This document shows positions 1 to 46,300 of a stretch of 47,784 nucleotides of DNA, piece by piece. The translations under genes and the position numbers were made by a program. This stretch comes from Psilocybe cubensis (Eukaryota): positions 124,001 to 171,784 of the forward strand of contig JAFIQS020000016.1 of assembly GCA_017499595.2 (NCBI GenBank), given 5' to 3'. Under the pieces are notes generated by a model that ran no database searches, was not told the origin of the DNA, and saw only the letters and a program-made list of their open reading frames with translations. Numbering within the stretch: position 1 is the stretch's first letter; each line of letters starts with the position of its first letter.

Positions 1-2899
1 CACCAATTCACATTCACATCTCATTCTTCAACACCAGCCTTCTGTGCAGGCTACCCTACCCATCAAGACGCCGCGGGATACGAGTGTATGTTTTGTAGGA
101 CACTTGCAGGTAAGTAATACGCTGTTCGACATGGATATGCGTTGACACGTAGCTGTTTGCGACAGCGACAAGCCTCTGCCAGCGGCGGACCGGTGTTGAA
201 AATGTAAGTTGTTCCGTGTTTTGCTCGTCGGGTACCACTCTTGATTGACCGCCCCATAACAGTGTTGAATCGACCTGGAAGTCGACGCCGGCGACGGACA
301 ACGACGCCTAGGTAAGTAAATCAACGCACTTTTTGTTGAGAATCTGCCTGAACTGACCTTGACACGCAGCATTCTCTGCAATACAGTAGCTGACATCCAA
401 CCACACCTTCTTGTCCATCATTCCAAGCAGCATACACGCTTTTGGCTTGCACAACCTTGGATCCGGCGATGTTGAAGTTGGATGAGGGCGAAGGGTGGTA
501 CCGCTGGAGTGTTGCGAGGTGAGTACACTGTATAACACAGTTAACAAAGCGGACTCACTAGAAACCCAAACGTTTCCAGTTGGTACATATCTTATTATAG
601 CCTGCTCTAGTATTGCTTGGATAGCAAATTTGATGTTAATATGGTGCTACAGAACCCGGAAGCCCGCTGCAACACGTACTCAGTGACATTCAGCGCAAGC
701 TCGTAAGAACGACGTGGTGTACGTATCATGGCCGTTTGCTGCATTTTGGTCATTTGAATGGCATCGGGGTACACAATTGGGTGCAGTGATGTCCGGTTGA
801 AGACTTGGTGGTGCGTGGTATAGAGATAATGGTCAAAAATGGGACAGGTTCACGCTGAGCCGTGAACCTGCTTATTTCTCACATTTTGACAGTTTCACAA
901 GTGCTATGGTATTATTTGAGTACTACAGAGATGAATTAATATGTCCTGTACCTGAATTAGTGCGTAAATAAAGTTGAGTGCGGCTGAGCAAAGATGAAAG
1001 TGTCAAAACATGTTAAGCGCCCGAATACACCCTCAACGAAATCAAACAAAAATGAAGAAATACCTGAATGTTAAACTCATTTCGTAGACTCCCCTGTACA
1101 GGTAGACTACGCAGTACACCCCTTAGTACTCATACCATCCATAGAAAGTCAACAATCACAAAAGTTTTATCAAAATTTTCAACACACGTACATGTCCACA
1201 TCCTCTCCCTCCCCCAATTCGCAATTCCAGCCTGTTTCCAACGTTTACTTTCGTTACAGGTCTTCTCGGGCACTAGCGGGGACATGCTTGGCTCGGATAT
1301 ACTGCCGTTATGCGCCCTAGAAGGTCAGAAGAAATGAGGGAAACAACATCGGTCCCATTGCATTTTGGAGGATTCAACTTACCTGGAGAGCGATTCTGCG
1401 TCGTTTCCGCGTCTGTCCCGGATTTTGGAGCCTCTGAGTACGTTGTTGGTGGTGCAGGACTGCCGATTGTGCCCGGATTAATGATTGGTAGGTCGGAAAT
1501 TTTGTTCTAGTCGCGTATCGTTGTGCGGAGTCATGATTGGAATACCCTCATCATTCCAATAATGCTTTTACCTAGTGTACGTCTTTTTCAATGTAAAGTA
1601 GCCCCTGATTGGAAGGGGAGTCGTTACCTGGACTGTCTGTATGACTTTGGGATTCACTGTGCCTGGCGTACGATATTCAAGTTTACATTGAATACGAACA
1701 TCAATTAAGCTCCGAGAATGCACATCTTTGCATACAACGCAAATAACACTTTAATCAGAGATCACATACCTATACTCGGCTGATATAGGAGTCAGCAGGT
1801 TTTAGGGTTTAGCCGTACGAGTCTTGAATGCGTGAATTGAATACCGCATTCCACAAATTGCATCGCGATACGTTGAAATGGGGGATATTGGTCCAGATCT
1901 GCGCAACGGCCAACCGGTCCAGCATCGCGTAACACTGCAGCAAAAGACAAGGGAGTATATTTGGGCTACTTCCGACATGCAGCGGACACTAGTAGGTATA
2001 TAAGGACGACTGACCTCGGCAATACCCTTCATTCCCTCATCCCCTCTCTTTTTCCCTCTCAGAGGTGTCCAGCACTTGTGCCCGCTCCCTTTTTATATGC
2101 CCCCTCCGACAAGTCGATGTTGACGGGCGTTGCAGCAGGTGTCTGACGGTGGGCGTTCTGGAGCATGGACAATGGTGAGCCTGACGGTGTGCAATGTGTG
2201 GGACAACACTGACGTACCTTTGCCCATTGTTGCGGTTTAGGGTTTCCGCGCGACGTGGCCGACGACACGGTATGTATCCTTTTCTTGCATTCTCTTGCTC
2301 TGCCCTCCGCTCAACGCCATTCAGCTCGCCCTCTCCGCTGTCCTACGCCTCGCAACTACGTGAATGCACCGCAACACCATGAGTATCGGAGTCCGCCCTT
2401 GCATTCTGAGCCGCTCCTGACCATCACCCTCGTAGAACATTATTGCCGACGAGTGAAGGATCTGGGAGGTAGGATTTAGGGTTCTCGGCAAGAACGTCAG
2501 AAGTGTCTGCAAATGCGGTGCGAAGAGGATAGGATGTGTGCTCGCGAGCGGTGTGAGTGTCGAGAGGAAGGTGGATAGGTAGTGGTAGTTGGACGTTTTT
2601 GGTCGTGAGAGTGCGTATGTGTATGTAGAGGAAGATGTAGATGGGGGAGGGAGGGGAGCGTGTAATGGTGGTTAGGAGAGCGCGTTGGAGAGGGCTGGGA
2701 GGGTGTTGAGCATTGGTGAGAGCAGGGAAATGGACTGTGCGAGTTGTGTGGCGTCTGCTGAAGAGAGGAATGCTACGGACGCCAGGAGCGCTGCATGGCG
2801 GACCTATTCAATACCATACGTTGTATAAACCACCACCACTACCACAAAAACCCAGCCGTCAGCACCTTCCTACCGAAATTATAAAGTAAAGCAGACACA

Positions 2900-3470
2900 C
2901 CTCGATATTCTCTGGATCCTGCAAGCCGCACTGAAACACACCGAGCATGGCATTGATCTGGAGGTCCATCACAAGGTTCGGACATCCCGCAAAAACTCTA
3001 TACGCGCTCTCCCTCAACATCCACCCGGGCACCGCACCACCACCCACACTGCCTGAACCCTCCTCACCTCCAAGCCCCTGTGCATGTGTCATACTAAACG
3101 CCTGCGCCTGCAACGCATGCCACGGTCTACCCCTCGCCATCCCCTGATTCGCAACATCACATATCATATCCACCGTCTTCCGCCTCACACTCCCTGCGCA
3201 CTCATGTGCCAATGAGAACAGCAGTAACCGCTCGAGGGGGTTGAGGGTCTGATGCGAGAGGTGGTCGTACAGCAAGGAATGGTTCGCGTGTGTGGTGTGC
3301 GAGGGTATGTGCTGCTGTTGCTGCTGCTGTCGGTGGTGCTGTTGTTGTTGCAGTTGTTGGTGGATGTCAGGGCCGGGGGCGGGCGGGCCGCCATTATTCA
3401 CTGTGAGAACAGGTGCCGGGAGGAAGAGGCGGCGGCGGAGGAGAATGCGCGAAAGCGAGCGCATCGTCTA
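2900..3470 (-). pseudogene. PSE1: Fragment of importin beta-3 (Pse1/Kap121/importin-5), N-terminal HEAT repeats
   Basis: ORF 2859..3464 contains ILLRR...LERLLLFSLAHE..VRRKTVDMICDVANQ...WHALQAQ...RESAYRVF...GLQDPENIEV, resembling the importin-5 N-terminus. No downstream exons are recognisable, so it is a fragment. Confidence 0.65.
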
Positions 3471-3752
3471 TATGCACGGATTCAGGAAGAGATAATGTAA
3501 GCAAACACAGACAAACACAAAGGCTTCCTCTGCCGCGTGTCGTTGTGGGCGGCGAGTGGACGCGACAGCGGGACGGCAGCCGGCGAGGGGAGGCGGCGCG
3601 GCAGCAGCGACAGGCGTCGAGTGGAGGAGGCGGCGGCAGCAGCGGCCCGGGGGTGGCGGCGCAACGACACGCAGTGGCGAGCGCAAGTGTCGGGACAGCG
3701 AGCGCAGGCATTGGGATGGTGAGCGGAGGCGTCGGGGGCGGTGAGACAGGCG

Positions 3753-3988
3753 GGAGGCCGGCCTCCAGTGGCTGGCGTGTACGAGTGGAGGCTGGCCTCC
3801 ACTCACGCGTACAACGCGCGTACGAATCGAGGCCGGCCTCAGGTGGCCTCGACACGTTTATTTTTAGACGGAGGCCGGCCTCCAGTGCCTGTCAAAAATT
3901 ATTTTTAGACGGAGGCCGGCCTCCAGTGACCTCCATCAATTTGGAGGCCGGCCTCCAGTGGCCTCCATCAATTTGGAGGCCGGCCTCC
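3753..3988. repeat. Array of seven GGAGGCCGGCCTCC-type palindromes
   Basis: Copies at about 3753, 3787 (variant), 3829 (12-bp core), 3870, 3911, 3943 and 3975. Confidence 0.85.
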
Positions 3989-4159
3989 ATAAATTACATA
4001 TTTAATTATGTAGCACCTCCGTATGTACCAAATAAAATATTTTAAAAGTGCATTTGGGGGTTTTTGAGGTCGAGAAATCCGAATCTAGCATCAGATTTCC
4101 GGAATTCTAAACAGGAGGCCCAATGCAACGAAGGCCCCCCCTTCGGGGGGGAATAAGCC

Positions 4160-4815
4160 TAGGAAGTAAGGTAGGCGTGTGAACTTCCGAACGGCATGTG
4201 ATTGTGAAGGGCCGGATCTAATTTAGTACATGGGAAAAGTTACTTAGTACCTCGGGAAAAGTTCCTTAGTACCGTGGAAACATTTTTGATGGACCGGATC
4301 ATGAACTGTCCAATTAAGATTCACAACAATCAATCAATTGATTGTTAGGTAAGGACCCAGGTAAGCTATTTATACTCTAGACATGTGAATATTCCCATGT
4401 CGCGGTTACTCGGAGCCACGTAACCAGAGTACTCTATATCCATGTGATTCACATCACAGTCAATAACCCACGATGTCAAAGAACAAAAGTGTTGGATCCA
4501 CTTTTGACAGGTTACCATGTGCCACATTGACCCGTGACACTCTGTTCATCAGAGACCTGTCTAACTTGACAATAAACATTGACAGATTTGTGATAGTCGG
4601 TAAGATACATGACAGCTGCGCAGCATCACTTCACGCGCTGTCATCGGATGTCTAGAACATTCCTTCTAAGAATAGCCACTGAAGAGTCTATAAAGACGAA
4701 AGGGCTGGTTGTTGGGATCCCCCAACAGCCCTCTGGCTTCTTTCCATTTTAACTCCCAGTTTAAACTAGTCGCTCGCACCTCGCTTCGCTCGGTGCTCGC
4801 TCCCCCCCTAAACCC
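4160..4815 (+). repeat. Pseudo-LTR copy 1
   Basis: Matches 8573-9228 by eye. Confidence 0.92.
4674..4738 (+). ncRNA. Type I hammerhead ribozyme, copy 1
   Basis: Stem I AGCCA/TGGCT; core CTGAAGA (4679-4685); stem II GTCT-ATAA-AGAC; GAAA (4698-4701); stem III GGGCTG/CAGCCC; CUC triplet with predicted cleavage after C4733. Confidence 0.9.
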
Positions 4816-4844
4816 AACGACTTTGCTATCACCCATCAGCCACT

Positions 4845-6003
4845 ATGTCATCCCAATATTCTGCTGCTTTCTCTCGTGCCATGTCCCCCACCCTGGACGC
4901 ACTCACCCAGGCCGTCGTCAACAACACCGTCTTCGGCGTCAACGATGAAGCAGGCCGCCATAACGCTCTGATCGACGAGCTGGCCACTGTGGTCATCAAA
5001 AAAATAGCTGAGTGCCGCTCCGTTGACCAAGTCATAGACTGCGTCTTTTTTGACTATCGTGCTGCCCTTAGGGAGTTTCTCCACAACCTCGCATCGTGGT
5101 GCGATAAGAGGGAAACAGTCAAGGCTAGCCTCGAGCGCCTTGAATCTGCCGTTAGCGCAGGCAACACGCCCAATCGCCTTAAGGTGAAGGCACCCGAGTT
5201 CCAACTTACGAAGGAATTCGCGGATGCCGGGTCAGCGGAGGCTCTTCGAGTCTCCACTACGTTCTCTTCCGCTCGTGATGCCTTCCAAAAGGCAATTAAC
5301 GACGGCGCCGTTCAGGCGAAAAAGGACGAGCTGGCTTTTTGGGATGATAAATGCGCGCTCAACTCTTGCTACGAAGCTGCTGCCCTCATCGTTAAGGCAA
5401 CTTACGATGATCGCAAATCCAGCTACAAGCTCCCTGTTTTCTCTACAGACAACAAGGGAGTTCGACGTATAGCAGAGTGGGTAGTGTCTCCGCAAAAGAA
5501 AGCCGAATGCAGTGCGCTGCAAACTATACTGCCGGCGATCTTTTCTCATATCAAACAGATTGTCAACATGCGCCACCGCGCCTTGGCAATTAAGATTGAG
5601 AAAAAGCGGACGACTGCGGCAACAGCCGATGTCGAGATGGCCGATGCGACCAAACCAGGTCCATCGATTCAATCCCTTATTGATAAGGGCTTGAATGCAC
5701 GTCTCAAAAAGCTCAACCTTGGATCTGTGGGCAAGAAGGCAAGTTTTCGTAACCCTTCACCCATAATTCTGGACACTAATTATTACTCTAATTACCCAGA
5801 CTTTGTCTGGCCAGAATTCGTCCAAGGCTCCTCAACCTCAGGCCAGGAAAGCTGGCCCTTCGAAACCCAAGTCGTCGTCGACGCCTTCGCAGAGGAAGCC
5901 TCAAACCAAGGCTTCCAACAAGGTCGACAACAAGAAGAAAGGGAAGGGGAGAGCTCCCGTCAAGAACAACGATCCAAAGGGAAAGGGAAAGGCAAGAGCC
6001 TAG
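4845..6003 (+). CDS. Predicted spliced ORF1 (365 aa, helical body with Lys-rich tail); exons 4845-5738 and 5800-6003
   Basis: AAG|GCAAGT donor at 5739, CTAAT branch candidates and CCCAG acceptor at 5799 (61 nt). Splicing joins codon 298 in phase with the basic frame ending KKKGKGRAPVKNNDPKGKGKARA*. Confidence 0.6.
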
Positions 6004-8378
6004 ACGCGCGGTCTACTGTAGCATCATTTACGTCGGTGAGACCCGCCTTCCCCAACTCTATTCCTGACGATATACTCACCATGACTAAAACAGACGCAGT
6101 TTCTTTTGTACACCTCAATACCCCGATTTCATTCTTATTGGCTGGCCAGTATAGATCTAGTGTACACTGTAGTCCTGGTGTTTCGGTCCCTGTTGATGTA
6201 GCAAATGATTTATCTCTTGGACTCAATTATATGTTTTTTACACTGCCTTCTAAAAGTCTGATCATGCAAGCATGGAATGATTTTCAACGAAGAATAAGAT
6301 GGCGTATCTATTTTTTGTTTAAAGAAGGCATGAATAAACCTTTCGATCCAGACTATGGAGTAAGCTCTAAAAAGAAAGAGAAACCTCCAATGTTACCGCA
6401 ATTTATGGAACTTGGCCTTTCAATGGGACGTCGGTACGTTATTAAAACGATCGCAAGTATCCCGGAAGAAGCCCTTAAAGAGATGCGAAAGCACGCGTTC
6501 TCTCCTAAAAGGGACAAGATCCAAAAGTTTCTTATCGATAACAACTATGTTATTACGATGACAGATAAGAATCTTGGCCTCGCGGTGTCTGAACGCGACT
6601 GGATATTAAGGAATGAGCTCAATCTTCTTGAAGATGAACGCAACTACGAAGAGTTAGAATTCGAAGTTGCGCAAGAAGTTATGAAGAGCAAAATGATTCA
6701 GATGCAAACTCTCGCACGTACCGTCGAAGATGAACATCTGTTTCTATTTGAACTTGGGTTGTCTCGATTCTTTCTATCGAATGTACCGGAAGACGGATCA
6801 TCGTTCAAGTATCCTCAATTTCATGGTATACCTAAAATCCACAAGAAACCTACTGGATTTAGGCCCATAATTCCGTGTCACTCTGTAGTTTTTAATCCTG
6901 CAGCCAAGTTTGTATCAAAAGAGCTTAAGCCGATTATTAAATCGACTCCTTCAATCATTCACGGAACGAAGGATCTCTTTACGAGATTAAGCCAATTGCG
7001 TATAGACCCCAAACGACAATGGTATTTTGTCACCGGGGATGTAGTCGCTTTCTATCCCAATATTCCGTTGGACTTGTGCATCGAAATCGTTTGTAGTATG
7101 TACGAGGAATGGTTACTCAACGCTTCGGAAGAAAACACTGCATTAGCCCATATTAATCCAAATTCGTTAGAGAATAACTTGGTTAAATTGGGCATCTTTA
7201 AACGTGCTATCGAGATTGGCAATACGCAATTGATAACACAACATGGGTCTAGATATTTTAGACAAAAAAATGGCCTCGCAATGGGCGTCGCGGATTCTCC
7301 GGACCTTGCTAACCTCTTTGGAGCCCATTTTGAAATAAAGTCAAAAATCTTAGACCACCCAAATGTGGCCTTCTATGGAAGGTACATCGACGATTGTTTC
7401 GCAATTGTTTACGCCGAGTCCGAAGCACTTGCACTTAATCTTATTAAAGAAACAATAAAGTTCGATGGTTGTGTTATCGAATGGGCTGTTTCCTTGTCGG
7501 GATGTCAATTTCTCGATGCTTTCATATTCAAGGAGTCTGGAAAACTTCATTGGAAGCCATTTGTCAAGACAGGAAACAACCGAGAACGAGTTCCATGGGT
7601 ATCACATCATCCTTTGGACGTCAAACGTGGCGTCTACATTGGAGAGTTATCCAGGTTAGCCGTGCTATGTAGTACCAAGGAAATCTACATTGGAGCAATT
7701 AGAGACCTTAACGCTCTCTATTTGATGCGCGGTTATCCCGAAAACCTAGTCATGTCTTGGTGTAAGAAGAATATACAAGAACGTTGGAAAAAGCGATTCG
7801 CTTTACGAGTCGCAGAGCACGACGAATCCATTCTTGTACTTAAAACCAGGTTTGATCAGGTATGGAATTGGTTTTCAGCTGCTGAACTTGGAAAAACTGT
7901 TACCAAGTACTGGTCGGCATGGTATGAACATGCCGAGAAAGGTCTGTATAGTGCAGACTCGTCCAGACCCCTTATCAAACCAGATCCAAATTACGTTCAC
8001 GACCTCGATGATGTTCGCCCGGAGCTGTTCACACAGATCCTCGTGGACGGAGAAACTGAGTTCGTACCGGATTTGAGGAAGATAGGACTACTCGGAAGTC
8101 GTTGGATAGTATCGCGAAAACGCAATACTAATCTTTTCGACCTTGCAAATGTGTGGAAGAAAACAGTCTTTCGTAAACTGGATGAAGACATTGCCGAAAA
8201 AGGTGGTGTTGTTCCCGAAACTCAAAACGTTAATGAAACTTATCATTCTGCTCTAGTTGAAGCTGCTGAGCAGATAAGTATCGAAAGTGATAACGAGATA
8301 ATACTTCATAGACGTTCAATCTCACAAGAGAGGGAACATCCAGAATTCGGCAGAATATCCAAATCTTACAACCGATGA
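4845..8378 (+). CDS. Penelope-like ORF1-reverse transcriptase polyprotein (1177 aa unspliced frame), no endonuclease
   Basis: RT motifs TDKNLG, FHGIPKIHKKPTGFRPII, GDVVAFYPNI, QKNGLAMG, RYIDD and FLD, then the PLE C-terminal extension HPLDVKRGVYIGELSRL. No GIY-YIG motif is visible. Confidence 0.92.
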   Translation: MSSQYSAAFSRAMSPTLDALTQAVVNNTVFGVNDEAGRHNALIDELATVVIKKIAECRSVDQVIDCVFFDYRAALREFLHNLASWCDKRETVKASLERLESAVSAGNTPNRLKVKAPEFQLTKEFADAGSAEALRVSTTFSSARDAFQKAINDGAVQAKKDELAFWDDKCALNSCYEAAALIVKATYDDRKSSYKLPVFSTDNKGVRRIAEWVVSPQKKAECSALQTILPAIFSHIKQIVNMRHRALAIKIEKKRTTAATADVEMADATKPGPSIQSLIDKGLNARLKKLNLGSVGKKASFRNPSPIILDTNYYSNYPDFVWPEFVQGSSTSGQESWPFETQVVVDAFAEEASNQGFQQGRQQEEREGESSRQEQRSKGKGKGKSLDARSTVASFTSVRPAFPNSIPDDILTMTKTDAVSFVHLNTPISFLLAGQYRSSVHCSPGVSVPVDVANDLSLGLNYMFFTLPSKSLIMQAWNDFQRRIRWRIYFLFKEGMNKPFDPDYGVSSKKKEKPPMLPQFMELGLSMGRRYVIKTIASIPEEALKEMRKHAFSPKRDKIQKFLIDNNYVITMTDKNLGLAVSERDWILRNELNLLEDERNYEELEFEVAQEVMKSKMIQMQTLARTVEDEHLFLFELGLSRFFLSNVPEDGSSFKYPQFHGIPKIHKKPTGFRPIIPCHSVVFNPAAKFVSKELKPIIKSTPSIIHGTKDLFTRLSQLRIDPKRQWYFVTGDVVAFYPNIPLDLCIEIVCSMYEEWLLNASEENTALAHINPNSLENNLVKLGIFKRAIEIGNTQLITQHGSRYFRQKNGLAMGVADSPDLANLFGAHFEIKSKILDHPNVAFYGRYIDDCFAIVYAESEALALNLIKETIKFDGCVIEWAVSLSGCQFLDAFIFKESGKLHWKPFVKTGNNRERVPWVSHHPLDVKRGVYIGELSRLAVLCSTKEIYIGAIRDLNALYLMRGYPENLVMSWCKKNIQERWKKRFALRVAEHDESILVLKTRFDQVWNWFSAAELGKTVTKYWSAWYEHAEKGLYSADSSRPLIKPDPNYVHDLDDVRPELFTQILVDGETEFVPDLRKIGLLGSRWIVSRKRNTNLFDLANVWKKTVFRKLDEDIAEKGGVVPETQNVNETYHSALVEAAEQISIESDNEIILHRRSISQEREHPEFGRISKSYNR

Positions 8379-8490
8379 AAAGAATACTAGCGCTTAAGGC
8401 GTAAAGCATTAGAAAAAAACCCTAACCGTAAGTATTCCTTGCTACAAAGTAACAAACATCTACTTACAAGCAACACATTGGATTAAATAG

Positions 8491-8572
8491 CTAAACCTAA
8501 ACCTAAACCCTAAACCCTAAACCCTAAGCCCTAACCTAACCCCAACCCTAAGCTAACTAAGTCTAACCTTAG
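8491..8572 (+). repeat. Degenerate telomere-like C-strand repeats inside the element 3' UTR
   Basis: ctaaacctaaacctaaaccctaaaccctaaaccctaagccctaacctaaccccaaccctaag... Confidence 0.85.
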
Positions 8573-9228
8573 TAGGAAGTAAGGTAGGCGTGTGAACTTC
8601 CGAACGGCATGTGATTGTGAAGGGCCGGATCTAATTTAGTACATGGGAAAAGTTACTTAGTACCTCGGGAAAAGTTCCTTAGTACCGTGGAAACATTTTT
8701 GATGGACCGGATCATGAACTGTCCAATTAAGATTCACAACAATCAATCAATTGATTGTTAGGTAAGGACCCAGGTAAGCTATTTATACTCTAGACATGTG
8801 AATATTCCCATGTCGCGGTTACTCGGAGCCACGTAACCAGAGTACTCTATATCCATGTGATTCACATCACAGTCAATAACCCACGATGTCAAAGAACAAA
8901 AGTGTTGGATCCACTTTTGACAGGTTACCATGTGCCACATTGACCCGTGACACTCTGTTCATCAGAGACCTGTCTAACTTGACAATAAACATTGACAGAT
9001 TTGTGATAGTCGGTAAGATACATGACAGCTGCGCAGCATCACTTCACGCGCTGTCATCGGATGTCTAGAACATTCCTTCTAAGAATAGCCACTGAAGAGT
9101 CTATAAAGACGAAAGGGCTGGTTGTTGGGATCCCCCAACAGCCCTCTGGCTTCTTTCCATTTTAACTCCCAGTTTAAACTAGTCGCTCGCACCTCGCTTC
9201 GCTCGGTGCTCGCTCCCCCCCTAAACCC
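8573..9228 (+). repeat. Pseudo-LTR copy 2
   Basis: Direct repeat of 4160-4815. Confidence 0.92.
9087..9151 (+). ncRNA. Type I hammerhead ribozyme, copy 2
   Basis: Same sequence as copy 1; predicted cleavage after C9146. Confidence 0.9.
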
Positions 9229-9254
9229 TAAACCCTAAACCCTAACCCTAAACC
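9219..9254 (+). repeat. Telomeric repeats (CCCTAAA/CCCTAA)n, junction 1
   Basis: ccctaaaccctaaaccctaaaccctaaccctaaacc. Confidence 0.9.
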
Positions 9255-9760
9255 GTCCAATTAAGATTCACAACAATCAATCATTTGATTGTTAGGTAAG
9301 GACCCAGGTAAGCTATTTATACTCTAGACATGTGAATATTCCCATGTCGCGGTTACTCGGAGCCACGTAACCAGAGTACTCTATATCCATGTGATTCACA
9401 TCACAGTCAATAACCCACGATGTCAAAGAACAAAAGTGTTGGATCCACTTTTGACAGGTTACCATGTGCCACATCGACCCGTGACACTCTGTTCATCAGA
9501 AACCTGTCTAACTTGACAATAAACATTGACAGATTTGTGATAGTCGGTAAGATACATGACAGCTGCGCAGCATCACTTCACGCGCTGTCATCGGATGTTC
9601 CAGAACATTCCTTCTAAGAATAGCCACTGAAGAGTCTATAAAGACGAAAGGGCTGGCTGCTGATATCAATCAACAGCCCTCTGGCTTCTTTCCATTTTAA
9701 CTCCCAGTTTAAACTAGTCGCTCGCACCTCGCTTCGCTCAGTGCTCGCTCCCCCCTAAAC
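9255..9760 (+). mobile_element. 5'-truncated pseudo-LTR mini-copy 3 (variant)
   Basis: Starts at gtccaattaag (equivalent to 4308) and ends at the CCCCCTAAAC motif. It has several substitutions relative to copies 1 and 2. Confidence 0.88.
9622..9686 (+). ncRNA. Type I hammerhead ribozyme, copy 3 (variant stem III extension)
   Basis: Core and stems I and II are conserved; the apical stem III has compensatory changes. Predicted cleavage after C9681. Confidence 0.88.
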
Positions 9761-9774
9761 CCTAACCCTAAACC
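9753..9774 (+). repeat. Telomeric repeats, junction 2
   Basis: ccctaaaccctaaccctaaacc. Confidence 0.85.
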
Positions 9775-10280
9775 GTCCAATTAAGATTCACAACAATCAA
9801 TCAATTGATTGTTAGGTAAGGACCCAGGTAAGCTATTTATACTCTAGACATGTGAATATTCCCATGTCGCGGTGACTCGGAGCCACGTAACCAGAGTACT
9901 CTATATCCATGTGATTCACGTCACAGTCAATAACCCACGATGTCAAAGAACAAAAGTGTTGGATCCACTTTTGACAGGTTACCATGTGCCACATCGACCC
10001 GTGACACTCTGTTCATCAGAGACCTGTCTAACTTGACAATAAACATTGACAGATTTGTGATAGTCGGTAAGATACATGACAGCTGCGCAGCATCACTTCA
10101 CGCGCTGTCATCGGATGTCTAGAACATTCCTTCTAAGAATAGCCACTGAAGAGTCTATAAAGACGAAAGGGCTGGTTGTTGGGATCCCCCAACAGCCCTC
10201 TGGCCTTCTTTCATTTTAACTCACAGTTTAAATAGTCGCTCGCACCTCGCTTCGCTCGGTGCTCGCTCCCCCCCTAAACC
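9775..10280 (+). mobile_element. 5'-truncated pseudo-LTR mini-copy 4
   Basis: Same start point (gtccaattaag) as copy 3. Confidence 0.88.
10141..10205 (+). ncRNA. Type I hammerhead ribozyme, copy 4
   Basis: GCCA-CTGAAGA-GTCT ATAA AGAC-GAAA-GGGCTG...CAGCCC-TC-TGGC; predicted cleavage after C10200. Confidence 0.88.
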
Positions 10281-10303
10281 CCTAAACCCTAAACCCTAAA
10301 ACC
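10272..10303 (+). repeat. Telomeric repeats, junction 3 (to copia)
   Basis: ccctaaacccctaaaccctaaaccctaaaacc directly abutting copia gag sequence. Confidence 0.88.
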
Positions 10304-10333
10304 ATCGAATGTCATCGACTCGAAGCGGAAACA

Positions 10334-13300
10334 GTGACTCGCAAATATCCTCCTGGCTCGGAGTATTCCAACTTTTCAAATAGCGACAATCGTCCTATTG
10401 CCAAACATCCGCACAATCCCAACGGGGTCAGGTGCACTAACTGCAAAGGTCGTACTCACGATCGTGATCACTGCTATCGGCCTGGGGGTGGCATGGAAGG
10501 TCAGGGACCAAGGGGACCAAATGCGGCAAATGCAACCACTGCTGCAAAGAAACCCACCGAGACTGCAAACGTTGCAGTCGTTGCTGAAAACGACTTCTTA
10601 GAGAGTGGGGAAATATCGTGCGCTCTGATTGAAGAGGTCGATGAGGTGGGTGTCACCGCAGTTGCAGGGGACATCTCGACGTGCGCTACTCTGCTCGACT
10701 CGGGAGCAACCTCTCACTTGATCAAGTCGCGATCACTATTCCATACGTATTCCGAGGCCGATGCACGAGATGTCACCACTGCAAATCTTGGTACTCTTCA
10801 CACTCGAGGAGGCGGAACCTGCTACATTAATGTGAATCACAATGGCCGCTCAATCCGTGTCAAACTCAATAACTGCCTGCACGCACCTAATGCCGCCATG
10901 AACTTGCTCTCTGTGAGTCGGCTCAACATCGCCGGGATTGCCTGCAACTTCGTACCAGGATGTGGTGTTGTCCTATCGAAAAATGGTGTGGAACTAGCGT
11001 CCGGACGGCTGAGAAACGGTCTCTTTGCCATTGAGAACGCGGCATTCATTCCACGACCCAGAGAATCCTCAGTCAGAGCCATGTTTGTTAGGGTTCCAGA
11101 GTCAATGCACTTACATCATCTTCGTCTTGGCCATCCTGGCCACCAAGCCACCCGATCGATCGTCAAACACGTTCTCAACGCCTCGATCAAGGACGATCAT
11201 GTTCGATGCGAACCATGCGTCATCGCCAAGCACACCGCAACCCCACACCCACAAAAGTCTCTTGGTCAACGTACCTATCAACCTCTCGAACTCATTCTTG
11301 CCGACACCTGTGGACCTTTCCCTGTTCAGACGCCGCATCATAAGGAACATTTCGTTGCTTTCAGATGTGCAGCAATGAAGGTGACCAACGTGCAGTTAAC
11401 TGCCGACAAGACGGCCGAAACGATGCTGGAGGCATTCAAAATTCTTCAACACCGATGGGAGAATCGCACCGGCTATAAAATCAAAAGGTTCAGATGCGAT
11501 GGAGGCTCGGAGTGGAAAGGGGTGTTTGCAGAGTACTTACTGGCTCAGGGCATTGAACAGGAAGTCACTCCGAGGTATGAACACTGGATGAACGGAGAGG
11601 CTGAGCGGTACATGAGAACTATTCAAGGTCGCATGTTGGCAATGATGACCACTGCACAGCTTCCTCTCACGTACTGGGGTGAGGCCGCTCTAACCGCTGC
11701 TTACCTATTGAATGTTACCACGGTTGACGAAAACAACATCACCCCATTCCAATCCATGTACGGTCGTCCTCCCAACCTTGCCCATCTTCGCGTTTGGGGA
11801 TGTCGTGCCTTCGTGCATGTTCCTGAAGAATGACAATCCAAACTCGGCCCAAAATCCGTGGAATGCCTCTTCATGGGGTATCCTCCTGGCGGGAAAGGTT
11901 ACCGCTTTCGACATCTTGATTCAGGACTTTTCTTTAACTCTTCCAATGCCATTTTTGATGAAAACATGCCTTATACTCCCGCTTTGACTTCTTCTTCTAC
12001 TCCTGTTGACTATTCTTCCTTACCTCTGCTTAATTCTCATTCTGTTGATTCTGATTTTCATGATTCTACTGATTCTGCTGTTACTGTTACTTTGCCTGTC
12101 TCTTCCTCTTCTATTTCTTCACGCTCTATTTCTTCTTCACCGTCGCCGCCTCCGGGCGACTTAGATGCTCCTGAATTACTTTCTTCTGATCTTGGACAAT
12201 CTCTTGTGAATCCTTCTGTAGAAATTACCCCCGAAACCCCAAATCTTCCCCAATCGCCTTTCATTCCATCAACACCTGCTCCAACTCGGATTCAACTTCC
12301 ACCCCGGTCTTCATCGCGTGACAAACGGTCGTCCAGTCGTGGAGAACTTTATGAGAAGTTGAGGGAGGCTGAACGAGAGGCGCGGGAAGTCAGGATATTG
12401 AAATTGGCGACGACGGCGGCGGCGAAGGCGGCGGCGAGGGATGCAGCGGCAGGGACGAGTGTGGGGGAGGCGGCTAGTGCTGCGGACACCGAGCAAGGGG
12501 GTGAAGACGACAATCCTTTTGTATCACTGTGCTCGGTAGGGATGCTTGAAGAGCATGAAAAGGGACTTTCGGAGGCCTCAAATTCTTCTGTCTCGTTAGA
12601 CGTCGAGGACTACCTCGCTCGCAACAAGGACTTTCTCTTCGAAACGACACTGCTATCCGTTCGAAGCGATCTTCGGAGGAATCCTCAATCACCAGAATAT
12701 GACATGAAGGTCCCACCAGCTACGTACGCAGAGGCAATGAAGAGACCTGATGCTGCCGAATGGAAGAGAGTGATGGATAAGGAGTTAGAGATGTTGAAGG
12801 GGATGGGTGTTTATGTTGATGAAGTCCTTCCTAACGGAGTGCATGCCATAGGATGCAGATGGGTGATGGAGTTCAAGATTCCTGACGATGGCGGTCCACC
12901 AATCTACAAGGCACGGCTCGTGGCACAGGGATTCTCTCAGCGACAATTCATCGACTACAACGCAACGTTTGCCCCAGTCTCTAAATCCGTCAGCGTGAGG
13001 GCCATTATCGTACACTCAGCACTCAATGGTTGGCACATCGAGTGCTTTGATGCAACGCGCGCTTTTCTCTGGGGAGACCTCTCCGAAGTCATTTACATGC
13101 GATGCCCACCAGGTTACCTCTCGCCGTTTCTCAATGGTGTGTGGAGATTAGTCAAATCCCTCTATGGTTTAAAGCAGGCTTCCCTTGTGTGGCATCAACT
13201 CATCTCTTCCGTCATCCTTAAGCTGGGCTTCGAGCGTTCGCAGTCGGATCATGCAGTATTTGTGTTTAAGAGAGAGTGGGGGGGAGGAATGGTGCACTGT

Positions 13301-14290
13301 GTGTTGTGCATCCACGTAGACGATGGACTGGCGGGTTCCAATTCCAAAGCATTCCTCGATCACACAAAAGGAGAGGTTGGAAAGGCTTTTGGAATCAAGG
13401 ATCTAGGTCCACTCAAATCTTTCCTAGGCGTTCAATACGAGCGAGACCTTGCAACACGCGAACTTTGGATTCATCAGGAGCAATATATCGACGCCATCCT
13501 TGATGAATATGGCATGGCCAGCTGCAGTCCCGTACTTACGCCAATCGATCCCATTCACGTCTTCGGTCGTGACGACGAAACATTTCCCGAGGTTCCAAAC
13601 ATCAAACTCACCTTTCAACGCCTCATTGGATCCCTTCTTTTCCTACAACGACACTCACGTCCCGACATCTCAATTGCCGTCCTGCTTCTTTCACAGCACG
13701 CCTCAAATCCTGAACCTCGTCACTATGCCACAGCTAAAAGAGTGCTTCGGTATCTTAAGGGTACACGAACACTACGTCTTCATTTTGGGGGACCCGGGTT
13801 CAATGTGCCTCTTCAAGGCTTTTCCGACGCTGACTGGGCCGGCAACAAGTTGTCGCGTGCCTCCATATCCGGATTCCTGTGGAGCATTGCAGGAGGCCCG
13901 TTAAGCTGGTCCTCGAAGACTCAAACGTGCATTGCCACTAGCTCCACAGAATCGGAGTACGTCGCGCTCACCAGGACTGTGCAGGAAGGCATATGGCTAC
14001 GGGCGTCTCTTCATCACCTCAATCTTCCATGTCCTGCACCACTCTTTGTATCCACGGACAACGAAGGCGCAAAATCGTTATGCGAGAACGATTCCTCTCA
14101 TTCCAAAGCCAAACATATTGATATTCGATACCATTTCATTCGCTCTCACGTCGAATCAAAACTTTTCGTCATCAAACACACGCCAGGTGTCACCAACCCT
14201 GCCGACATTCTCACAAAGCCGCTTCATCGTACCAAGTTCACGGAGGGTGTTCGTCGTCTTGGTTTAGTGCTGCGTCGAGGGGGTGTGTAG
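10334..14290 (+). pseudogene. Copia gag-pol polyprotein, 5'-truncated, with one in-frame stop at 11831-11833
   Basis: CTNCKGRTHDRDHC knuckle; LLDSGATSH protease; HLRLGH...CEPC; integrase DTCGP, RCDGGSEW, NGEAER; RT KARLVAQGFSQ, LYGLKQA, HVDD; RNase H SDADWAG, STESEY, KHIDIRYHFIR, ADILTKPL. The two ORFs share a frame across EE*QSKLGPKSVEC. Confidence 0.92.
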
Positions 14291-43385: not shown

Positions 43386-46300
43386 ATGTCGTCCACCCGA
43401 CGGGAAACGTTGCCCCTCAAGGAGAGGATCGTGGCCTTACTTACTCCTTCGGCAACTGGATCTTCCACTGATCAAGAACCCTCCTCAATGGACACATCAC
43501 CTGATTACCCGACGGAACGTCTAGAACAAGTAGAACAAGGAGGAGCTGGAGCTACTTTGTCCAACGCTACGCCTTCTAATGTAGCGGTTTCTTTTCCAAT
43601 TCCTCCACCCGGACCTGCCGCAGATGAACACGGTGCACGTACAGCCTCCATTGCTCCCTCTGTTTCTCAGCCCACCAATGGCGCTAGTTTGACCAATCAG
43701 GTTCCTGTAAATGCGGTTATTCTCTTACCACCCCGGCTTGCTGCAGATGACCAGGGAGCCCAAGGATCTTCAGTCCCAAATCGTGTTGCTCCCTCTGTTT
43801 CTCAGCCCAGCAATGGCGCTAGTTTGACCAATCAAGCTCCTGTAAATGCGGTTACTCTCTTACCACCCCGGCTTGCTGCAGATGACCAGGGAGCCCAAGG
43901 ATCTTCCGTCCCAGATCGTGTTGCTCCCTCTGTTTCTCAGCCCACCAACGGCGCTAGTTCGATCGATCAGGCGCCTTTCCGGTTTGCTACAGATGTTCGG
44001 GGTGCCCAAGGATCCTCCATTGCGAATAGTGTCTCTCGGCCATCCGCTGGACATATCCCACGGATTGGGTCTTCCGACGTGCTTTTTCCTGGACATTTCC
44101 GACAGAACGAGTCTTCCGCCAACACTAATCCTCCTCCGAACCCTGAAACGTCTATGGACATTGATCCTACACTACCTACGTCGTCAAATCCCAGTAGCAC
44201 CTCTACATTTCCACGGTTTTTTATACCCGTTTTGTCTGGAAATTTGTTCAATTTCACTAGAAGTGATCCGAACCAGTCTAACCAGTCTAAGGCGAAGAAA
44301 CGACGAGCTGCACCGGAAGACCATACCACCAAAGTCCAAGTCATCGAACAGAAAGACGTCGACATCGCAGAGCTGAGCAAGCAACAGGCACGTTACCCAA
44401 AATCTACTTTTCTTGTCATTTATGTATTCATTGCTTTTTTAGATCAAGCAGAGGGAAGAGGTGCTCAAGAAAATCATTGATGATGAACGAGCGGAAGTAT
44501 GTTAATTTATTTCCTATGTTGCAAGATTTGCGTATTTACCACCATCGTACAGCTAACTAAGTCGAAGAATGCCATCAAAAATGCTGAAAAGAAAGCAGAA
44601 AGGAGCAAAAAGGAGGTAGAGGCTGTACGTTCGCAGTATACCAAGCTGTCGAAGGCAATGCGGACGGAGAAGGAGAGCTCCAAAGGGCTTGAAGAAACTG
44701 TTAAAACTCAACAAGGCGACCTCTCGTCAGCGTTGATCAAACTTCGGCGTGCAGAGTCCTTATCTAAAGCATACGACCGCCAGCGTCTTGAAGCTCAGGA
44801 GCGTCACGAGAAAACGAATGCCGATCTCGAAGCTGCGGTTGCTTCGCGAGGTCAACAACTCTTCGCACAAATCTCAGATTTAGAAAACGACATCGCTCGT
44901 CTGCAGCAAGAGAAATCCAGCGAAGTCAGTACGTTACAGCGGCAGCTCCAGCAAGCAAATTCGAGGATTGAAGATTTAAGTGCCTCACAAAATACAGCGG
45001 CCCTTGCACAGGAACAAATTAGCTCTCTTCAGCAACAGCTCCGGGACGCGAATTCGACAATTGAAAATCTCAACGCATCGCAACGTGCAGCAGCAACGTT
45101 ACAGCAGCAGCTCCAGCAAGCAAATTCGAGGATTGAAGATTTAAGTGCCTCACAAAATACGGCGGCCCTTGCACAGGAACAAATTAACTCTCTTCAGCAA
45201 CAGCTCCGGGACGCGAATTCGACAATTGAAAATCTCAACGCATCGCAACGTGCAGCAGCAACGTTACAGCAGCAGCTCCAGGCAGCAAATTCGAGGATTG
45301 AAAGTTTAAGTGCCTCACAAAATACGGCGGCCCTTGCACAGGAACAAATTAACTCTCTTCAGCAACAGCTCCGGGACGCGAATTCGACAATTGCAAATCT
45401 CAACACATCGCAAAGTGCAGCACACGCACAGGACCAAATCAATGCTCTCCAACAACAGCTAGAGCGCGCAAACACGACACGTGTGGAAGATCAACAAACT
45501 ATCACGGGCCTCAATGAACGGTTGCGTGTTGCGTCAAACGAGATAACCCGCCTTACAGCACAATTACAAAACCAGCGAGAGGAGTCGCAGAAACAGTATC
45601 ATGCGCTCGAACGCGATCTCAAGTCCCAAATGGATCTCCATCAACAAAAATCAGCGGACGCCGAGAACGCTCTGAAAGCAGAGCAAACTAACCGAATGGT
45701 TTGTCTGTCAATCTTTAATCATGGCATTGTTGCTGATACAGAGCACAGGCCGAGATGAATCAAATGAAGGCCACTTACGAGGATACGGTGGTAGGATTCT
45801 AGTTTAGCCTATGCCTCAACAAATCCGACTGATAAGGTATCATTATTAGTCCAGCCTGCGTCTCCAAGTTTCCAATCTGGCACAACAATGTCAGGCAAAT
45901 CAAGGTCGCTTGAACGAGCTGGAATCAAGCAATACCGAATTCGGTAACACGACAAGTGCGTTGGAGGACATATTAAAGAACGAACGAATTAAGAATGAAG
46001 TAAATCTGTTCCCCTCCTTGTCAATCTTCGATTCTGATCACACCTCCAAGGTTTTGCAGGCTCGCATTAATTCAGTTATGAAGAACAGAACTCACAATAC
46101 TGAGGATGATTATGAACCAACGGAAATTAGGAGGTTGGATGCCCGGCGGAGGCTGGTATGTTAAACAATCCATTCGTACGTAGTACCTAATAATTTACCT
46201 CGATGTCTTCTAGATTGGGATCAACAAGCGCAATGCCGGGTTTTCTATACATTCACGAGTACGCAATAATGTATGTGGTGATCTTGTTGATCCTAACGAG

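Follow-up and report, generated by a model that had tools for sequence, protein, structure and literature searches.

Introduction

Telomerase has its closest relatives in Penelope-like elements (PLEs) that lack an endonuclease, and the way in which these build and cap chromosome ends is not settled. In a published model for the Athena and Coprina elements, the overhang of a chromosome end primes reverse transcription (PMC8557442, PMC6431247, PMC13159263). A hammerhead ribozyme with reverse-complement telomere repeats, and 5'-truncated copies in head-to-tail stacks, have been described for such elements (PMC6431247, PMC8557442). Telomere-associated PLEs of fungi carry type I hammerheads with a large helix III, and a Serpula motif is reported to self-cleave in vitro, with kinetics given (Cervera and De la Pena, PMC4209133). 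For animals, retrozymes have already been proposed to be derivatives of PLE pseudo-long terminal repeats (pseudo-LTRs; bioRxiv 10.64898/2026.07.22.740005). Here we analyze a stretch of 47,784 nucleotides (nt) of Psilocybe cubensis (assembly GCA_017499595.2, contig JAFIQS020000016.1, positions 124,001-171,784; the window is this whole stretch), in which a full-length PLE is followed by two short units, c3 and c4, that share one 5' junction. An earlier reading of the letters alone (the sequence-only reading) had taken these units for a retrozyme-like parasite of the neighboring PLE.

Results

Organization of the stack

The segment 9147-10303 probably represents the oldest portion, on the centromere side, of a stack of Coprina-type PLE copies that are arranged head to tail and were built on a chromosome break in a copia element. 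All features of the stack lie on the plus strand. The full-length copy (4160-9254) begins with a 5' pseudo-LTR (c1, 4160-4818) that is 100% identical to its direct repeat, the 3' pseudo-LTR (c2, 8573-9231). Between them are an intact open reading frame (ORF, 4845-8378) for a PLE-type reverse transcriptase (RT) of 1177 amino acids (aa), identified from motifs and relatives, and a degenerate telomere-like tract within the 3' untranslated region (3'UTR, 8491-8572) which abuts c2 on its upstream side and has counterparts of the same kind in related loci. The left border of c1 at 4160 is the point that matches the end of this tract in the 3' copy. From the predicted hammerhead cut in c2, a tail with a predicted hairpin GCACC..GGUGC around CUCGCUUCGCUCG (9147-9218) leads to the first telomere-type tract, 36 nt of CCCTAAA/CCCTAA repeats (9219-9254), which separates c2 from c3.

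Downstream of the full-length element, the final ~510 nt of the pseudo-LTR are present twice more, at spacings of 534 and 520 nt. Direct reading, alignment and predicted folds placed unit c3 at 9255-9774 (a body starting at GTCCAATT, a hammerhead, a tail and a 22-nt tract at 9753-9774) and unit c4 at 9775-10303 (the same body, a hammerhead, a variant tail and the tract 10272-10303). Both hold only the 3' module of the element, namely pseudo-LTR body, hammerhead, tail hairpin and telomere tract, and no ORF of ≥100 aa was found in 9147-10303. Being non-coding, they could be made or re-made only by the element's enzyme in trans, which supports the claim of the sequence-only reading that they depend on the RT of the adjacent PLE. 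Our reading is that they are passenger copies and that a family propagating by itself is not proven. The telomere-type matches in the window, 10 in number, all fall within 8501-10299 (0.04 expected).

The base of the stack is a 5'-truncated Ty1/copia-type element (10304-14290; Pol_BBD, gag_pre-integrs, and RVT_2 at 2.2e-51) whose gag-pol lacks the 5' part and is cut at 10304 directly against CCCTAAAACC. Because the truncation falls exactly at the tract, the right side of the stack looks like a former chromosome end. Contigs of sequencing runs were compared with 9682-10700, X1 and X5 being DNA runs and X17 and X19 RNA runs; the RNA-run contigs cover only 10079-10278 and are uninformative on transcript ends, strand, level and circularity. 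In X5, a contig crossing from tail through tract into copia was present, together with two contigs that match from 10300 rightwards and carry other sequence on their left, leaving a loose end before 10300; their leftward continuation is not present in the window. The stack looks as if it sits on a chromosome break in copia that was healed by telomere addition and later internalized.

The anatomy of the locus fits the published Athena/Coprina mechanism. The TTTAGGG-type G-overhang of a telomere would pair with the CCCUAAACCC motif that the element carries ~70 nt past its hammerhead on the downstream side, and the element's RT would then extend the overhang. Under this mechanism c4 would have been added first, then c3, then the full-length copy. 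The telomeres of the related Stropharia rugosoannulata are (TTTAGGG)n of ~100 bp (PMC8874372), and the repeat type of the locus fits the host lineage; the tracts between the units, at 22-36 nt, are much shorter than those telomeres.

Left of the stack (3800-4160), repeats of the palindromic GGAGGCCGGCCTCC occupy 3829-3989; an AT-rich stretch is also present there, and a C8-TTCG-G8 hairpin lies immediately ahead of 4160. Short G-strand telomere-like motifs (TTTAGGGTTTAG and similar) occur in gene-like sequence at 1798-1815, 2235-2246, and 2471-2480. The part of the pseudo-LTR that is absent from the short units contains 2.7 tandem copies of a 22-nt unit, TTAGTACCTGGGAAAAGTTAC (4223-4280 and 8636-8693), which may be promoter- or enhancer-like. 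Tandem repeats of 135 nt (43651-43959) and 165 nt (44931-45422), with 95-96% matches, lie inside ORFs distant from the stack.

The parent element and its reverse transcriptase

The ORF protein is 99% identical to three P. cubensis protein clusters of 52, 20, and 7 members, and 350 relatives of ~1170 aa were found at E ≤0.001 among 7999 candidates scored. The RT motifs TMTDKNLG, PKIHKKP, FYPNIP, and YIDD were recognized by eye in the translation, and the DKN block (T573-G578) is invariant in an alignment of 17 relatives (A2), 4 of which contain RVT_1. Look-alikes found with a language model, a lead only, belong to RVT_1/HTH_animal/DUF8422 clusters and are commonest in rotifers. A search of the PDB returned nothing by sequence and, by profile, only the Drt3a RT (E value of 0.14). 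No GIY-YIG endonuclease was found by Pfam at E values up to 10, a weak test since Pfam missed the RT too, and the ORF stops ~170 aa past the conserved block. Hammerhead-bearing pseudo-LTRs and reverse-complement telomere repeats located at the 3' end occur here and also in relatives. The features used for classification (a single RT ORF without endonuclease, hammerhead pseudo-LTRs, terminal telomere repeats and a fungal host) were compared with the reference architecture of Coprina elements (PMC8557442, PMC13159263). Judged from its sequence, the element looks like an intact endonuclease-less PLE that is of the Coprina type by architecture.

The hammerhead motifs

A type I hammerhead has the core CUGANGA ... 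GAAA, a U-H cleavage site after helix III and an open helix I. The window contains the conserved core agccaCUGAAGAG..GACGAAA.., with the cleavage site between CAGCCCUC and UGGCU, U-H after helix III, and helix I open; the parts are arranged as agcca-CUGAAGAG-helix II-CGAAA-long helix III-UC, followed after the cut by UGGCU. The core CTGAAGAGTCTATAAAGACGAAA has four exact occurrences in the window, against 0 expected (100 shuffles). The hammerhead of c1 (4673-4739) has a predicted cut after C4733 and a weak Rfam match at 4654-4738, that of c2 (9086-9152), assigned from core match and fold, a predicted cut after C9146, that of c3 (9621-9687), with the helix III variant ..TGATATCA.., a predicted cut after C9681, and that of c4 (10140-10206) a predicted cut after C10200. 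Given these sites, the monomer lengths of 535 nt (9147-9681) and 519 nt (9682-10200) claimed in the sequence-only reading are arithmetically right, and its statement that each monomer has its own telomere-complementary tract was borne out (9219-9254 and 9753-9774). The 535-nt monomer folded better than 100 of 100 shuffles (z of -3.99).

In related metagenome loci (described below), 48 distinct hammerhead instances were listed. In helix I, 5 of 5 pairs have changes on both sides (25 sequences from the window and related loci). Helix II can form 3 bp or more in 49 of 52 cores, in which >30 different arm sequences occur. RNAalifold on a MAFFT alignment recovered helix I only; this alignment left helices II and III unresolved, and covariation in helix III refers to the comparison of c3 with c2 only. 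The seven clustered differences between these two comprise two G-C pairs changed to A-U and U-A and one G-U changed to G-C, as well as one broken pair and one loop change. The two compensatory pairs indicate that the c3 variant evolved under a pairing constraint. In c4 the outermost helix I pair is gone, and its minimum-energy fold is not a hammerhead. By sequence, the cores are intact in both c3 and c4, and cutting in vivo is a prediction; the X17 RNA-library contig (10079-10255) runs uncut through 10200/10201.

The junction shared by c3 and c4

The sequence GTCCAATTAAG starts at 9255 and at 9775, equivalent to 4308 and 8721 in the pseudo-LTRs of the full-length element. In the pseudo-LTRs (4308 and 8721) ...GGACCGGATCATGAACT comes before it, and both short units are preceded by one and the same CCCTAAA-type 22-mer, CCCTAAACCCTAACCCTAAACC (9233-9254 and 9753-9774). 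Reading and alignment thus confirmed the earlier observation that the two copies start at one nucleotide behind the same junction and differ in sequence. Between c3 and c4, 25 of 510 alignment columns differ (~5 of them alignment noise in a C run). Over this common part c1 matches c2 in every column (0 differences in 510), and c3 and c4 depart from them at 17 and 10 columns, respectively. The c3/c4 differences are clustered, as had been stated, with 7 inside 15 columns; only 11 of 20000 random placements were as dense. The view that two random truncations are unlikely to have coincided by chance is likewise supported.

Two features of these units pull in different directions. On the one hand, the blocks of difference are family variants and not private decay, as judged from contigs of the sequencing runs. 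The c3 loop type is present in a contig of X5 with a depth of 1757. The c4 tail is the majority type: none of the X5 contigs over 10205-10211 departs from it, it makes up ~81% of the depth there in X1, and an X19 contig matches it exactly while continuing into sequence absent from the window. That the blocks match variants found elsewhere favors separate donors. On the other hand, the irregular tract ..CCCTAACCCTAAACC beside GTCC is identical in both junctions, and the tract 10272-10303 has other irregularities, which favors an inherited junction. One common difference of c3 and c4 from c1/c2, at column 251 of alignment A1, is apparently the majority state of the family, a weak assignment made because no alternative letter appeared among the X1 and X5 variants listed. 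A microhomology deletion at AAC was also considered as the origin of the junction and rejected; it predicts ..AAACTGTCC, and ..AAACCGTCC is observed.

The most likely sub-mechanism, at somewhat less than an even chance, is common descent of the junction through local duplication and later exchange. One short unit lying between two telomere tracts would have been duplicated by unequal exchange or slippage between the tracts, in which case the 22-nt junction would be copied automatically. The variants of loop and tail would have come in afterwards, by patchwise exchange with other family members. A fixed RNA 5' end or some other hot spot is a possible source of the junction, if on the unlikely side. 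Such an end accounts for the variants and leaves the tract unexplained; a junction templated by the RNA explains both, but it predicts a family that is visible in DNA.

Abundance of the junction in sequencing runs

In X5, positions 9784-9817 are covered by a single contig whose depth of 1524.5 is the whole depth of the bin, and which continues upstream into ...GATGGACCGGATCATG, the context of the full-length pseudo-LTR, not into telomere repeats. In X1, a 94-nt contig matches 9710-9803 exactly across the c3-c4 junction, at a depth of 5.19 versus ~52000 summed for the body. The rarity of the tract-GTCC junction in these two DNA runs speaks against an amplified family of mini-elements; since contigs drop rare variants, one or two junction copies per genome could exist. 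The idea of a spread mini-element family was not upheld, the junction not being abundant in the X5 and X1 contigs. An exact scan for GTCCAATTAAGATTCACAACAATC gave 0 matches in prokaryote genomes and viral contigs, collections that are unsuitable for this purpose and make the result uninformative. Among the RNA libraries, the contig of X19, which is marked uncertain, is exact over 10198-10278.

The depth of the body itself differed between the runs. Summed contig depth over 9784-10157 was 52000-87000 in X1, versus ~41 at the copia flank, and 1400-5800 in X5, versus 64-94 at the flank. At position 9920, 12 X1 contigs sum to 67740; overlapping unitigs inflate this value, which does not give a copy number. 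The hundred-fold contrast in body depth between X1 and X5 could come from a burst, a satellite-like array or extrachromosomal copies.

Short units in related metagenome loci

A scan of metagenome contigs matched 460 stretches, of which 138 were confirmed and the best 80 loci kept. When 8379-9260 was compared with these 80 loci by blastn, the part comprising hammerhead, tail and tract (9081-9252) could be aligned; the other matches were two short ones in the 3'UTR upstream of the pseudo-LTR (L002 and L013). Since only the former part aligns, the pseudo-LTR body and its 5' border are not comparable across species. CCCTAA(A)C follows 33 of the 52 related cores within 60-200 nt (median 112; 127 in the window), CGCTTCGCT follows 13 of the 52, and a telomere-like tract in the 3'UTR is present in many related elements.

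Short units of the same kind were looked for in the 22 loci with enough sequence past the first hammerhead downstream of the ORF. Further pseudo-LTR-only units of ~700-915 nt were found in 4 of these (L010, L024, L046, and L038, which has two). In L059 the ribozyme region is repeated over ~260 nt, tail-only fragments are present in L015 and L024, and the remaining informative loci continue either with a 5'UTR and ORF or with unrelated flank. Of the five full short units, four start at the element's own 3'UTR telomere-like tract, and the second L038 unit starts 33 nt further in. Short 3'-module units flanked by telomere-like repeats are a trait of the family. The two L038 units have in common an 18-nt deletion and many substitutions which are absent from the full-length repeats.

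Several other features of these loci were recorded. The CUCGCUUCGCUCG motif, in a small hairpin just before the telomere-complementary repeats (9192-9214 in the window), is common to distant relatives (e.g., L054:75-124, L063:84-137, and L046:6285-6327), and this hairpin is a candidate recognition or initiation site for the RT. A core change from GTCGAAAC to GTCCAAAC was seen at L038:7003-7030 and 7708-7735 and at L046:5477-5502 and 6184-6209; it affects the short units of these two unrelated loci and the L046 3' pseudo-LTR, with the upstream copies retaining GAAA. From its sequence this change should inactivate the ribozyme, and it could reflect selection for uncut templates or be part of a general G-to-C bias of the L038 units. 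Two contigs start with >110 nt of terminal repeats (L053:2-126 and L080:6-116), one (CCCTAAA)n and the other (CCCTAA)n, and the internal motifs of their elements follow the same two repeat types, as if matching the telomere repeat of the host. Contigs of 4.1-5.1 kb that overlap their own start by 77-139 nt were also encountered (L002, L008, L016, L018, L019, L026, L029, L030, L033, L037, L041, L050, and L065); they assemble as cycles one unit long, as pseudo-LTRs or tandems would lead one to expect, and these terminal overlaps were rejected as evidence of circles because the pseudo-LTR repeat gives the same cycle in the assembly graph.

Discussion

Several observations weigh against a stack of Coprina-type copies built at a former chromosome end and against duplication within it. 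The stack is internal today: its left neighbor is intron-containing, gene-like sequence (1-4159), and no telomere tract precedes 4160. The inter-unit tracts of 22-36 nt are far below normal telomere length, so that simple addition to ordinary telomeres does not account for them. The ORF protein itself matches no Pfam family at E values up to 10, and the Coprina assignment is one of architecture. No Rfam hammerhead family matched at its gathering score, the sub-threshold matches being 25.3-29.1 bits versus 56.3 for RAGATH-1 hammerhead and 19.5 versus 48.5 for Hammerhead_3. As to duplication, c3 and c4 have no derived base in common except the junction, and independent insertions explain the variant blocks more simply, duplication needing two extra conversion events.

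Independent insertions with a determined 5' end are unlikely as the overall explanation. Each unit would be the complete cDNA of a short RNA starting at GTCCAATT, this 5' end being a transcription start or processing site inside the pseudo-LTR; for example, priming at the 5'-proximal CCCUAAACCC of an ordinary transcript would give a run-off product of ~510 nt. The units would then be dead-end by-products without the upstream 148 nt (8573-8720); that X5 and X1 contain the junction so rarely fits by-products unable to propagate. The c3 loop and c4 tail variants also exist elsewhere, as separate donors predict. The missing 148 nt hold the 2.7 tandem 22-nt repeats and could be promoter-like, and a pseudo-LTR promoter, with internal RT initiation near the junction of pseudo-LTR and ORF, has been described in another PLE (PMC11167929). 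Against this, ..CCCTAACCCTAAACC is the same in both units, for which a match by luck is roughly estimated at 1 in 10. The short units of relatives have no fixed start, those of L038 lying 33 nt apart and 4 of 5 beginning at a telomere-like tract, and the full-length copy in the window starts 148 nt upstream of the supposed start.

It is quite unlikely that the units are a retrozyme-like non-autonomous lineage, in which consecutive hammerheads cut transcripts to RNAs of ~520-535 nt that the PLE enzyme copies. Such an RNA would have the order tail, telomere tract, body and ribozyme, and would be circularized or used via template jumps; the chromosome end would prime at the internal tract, and copying would stop once the tract had been re-synthesized. 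The tract-GTCC junction would thereby be templated and inherited, each insertion bringing its telomere seed ready-made, and the telomere-like tract inside full-length elements, at which 4 of 5 of the relatives' units begin, would be the same device. Both units retain all cis parts (intact hammerhead core, conserved tail hairpin, and tract), and a templated junction predicts what is seen, namely the same 22 nt at the junction of two units that carry different variants. The two compensatory pairs in helix III of c3, the stable fold of the 535-nt monomer and the L038 short units, which form a lineage of their own, also speak for it, and animal non-LTR retrozymes have been argued to be derivatives of PLE pseudo-LTRs (PMC7229834; bioRxiv 10.64898/2026.07.22.740005). 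On the opposite side, the junction is rare in both DNA runs, c4 has lost its outermost helix I pair and has a non-hammerhead minimum-energy fold, the X17 contig is uncut at the c4 site, and neither circles nor copies remote from a full-length element are in evidence. Dead cores in both L038 units and the L046 unit indicate that ribozyme activity is not what maintains those units. Of the parasite proposed in the sequence-only reading, the cis parts, the structured body and the need for the RT in trans were supported; the inference from the junction was not, since local duplication or a fixed RNA 5' end explains it with no circular parasite needed.

An assembly artefact, with one short unit mis-assembled as two, is highly improbable: tandem near-repeats at chromosome ends are prone to mis-assembly and one tandem PLE collapsed after read checking (PMC13159263), but c3 and c4 differ at ~20 positions in blocks, the exact 94-nt contig crosses their junction in X1 (which may be the source sample), and X5 carries the tail-tract-copia junction.

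The novel point of the locus is that two units made of different family variants have one 5' junction, which duplication with exchange, a fixed RNA 5' end and a retrozyme-like cycle all fit. Taken as a stack of PLE copies, the locus is a clean fungal example comprising an intact element, a ribozyme-tail-telomere module, two short copies and a healed break. If it is true that the short copies are re-copied through RNA, retrozymes would be linked to telomere biology, and such elements might have built-in telomere seeds.

Comparison with known systems

HeT-A and TART at Drosophila telomeres likewise form telomere-specific head-to-tail arrays in which an RT-less element rides on its partner's enzyme; unlike the Psilocybe element they are LINE-type, attach by a poly(A) end, and have neither a ribozyme nor telomerase repeats.

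The plant LTR retrozymes resemble c3 and c4 in being non-autonomous, hammerhead-bounded and proposed to have a circular RNA intermediate (PMC5680766, PMC9695139). They differ in having type III hammerheads in true LTRs, Gypsy-dependent mobilization, primer-binding and polypurine sites, and no telomere link. Animal non-LTR retrozymes are closer, being non-coding tandem units with a type I hammerhead each that are related to the pseudo-LTRs of PLEs and for which use of the PLE enzyme is presumed (PMC7229834; bioRxiv 10.64898/2026.07.22.740005). Like them, c3 and c4 are non-coding tandem copies whose unit is bounded on either side by a predicted hammerhead cut site, the sites being separated by 535 and 519 nt. 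The animal units as described there are ~170-400 nt long, reach thousands of copies, have demonstrated circular RNAs and carry no telomere tract, whereas the Psilocybe units are two copies beside their parent, with a rare junction, and are known here from DNA sequence. The X5 and X1 contigs did not reveal the multi-copy family beyond a parent that characterizes retrozymes, a result compatible with a few copies. Two retrozyme papers make no mention of fungi, and we found no description of non-autonomous or retrozyme-like Coprina derivatives in fungi in a search whose scope did not extend to the primary Athena, Coprina and Terminon papers and their supplements, which may hold one.

The Athena elements and Terminons of bdelloid rotifers show the same 5' truncation by short telomere stretches and the same head-to-tail arrays (PMC6431247). 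In the rotifers the repeats lie immediately 3' of a minimal hammerhead, whereas in Psilocybe the hammerhead has a long helix III and a ~70-nt tail with a conserved hairpin intervenes; host and telomere repeat also differ. With the fungal PLEs of PMC4209133 the Psilocybe element has in common the flanking-repeat hammerhead with a long helix III. Two features set it apart from the Coprina clade (e.g., Coprina-1_Alen; PMC13159263, PMC8557442): the stack is internal and not at a chromosome end, and two pseudo-LTR-only units have one 5' junction, an arrangement to which the available portions of these two papers do not refer. It is like them in having a single RT ORF, the DKN motif, no GIY-YIG found, direct flanking repeats, telomere repeats at the element ends and an ORF pointing away from the telomere side. 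As to novelty, for which the sequence-only reading named no earlier description in basidiomycetes, the parts had already been described, the hammerheads of fungal telomeric PLEs among them (PMC4209133). The combination of hammerhead, ~70-nt tail, reverse-complement telomere repeats and stacked short copies is the published Athena/Coprina signature, and as it stands the locus mainly confirms that architecture in Psilocybe and in ~80 uncultured relatives, the best 80 of the 138 confirmed.

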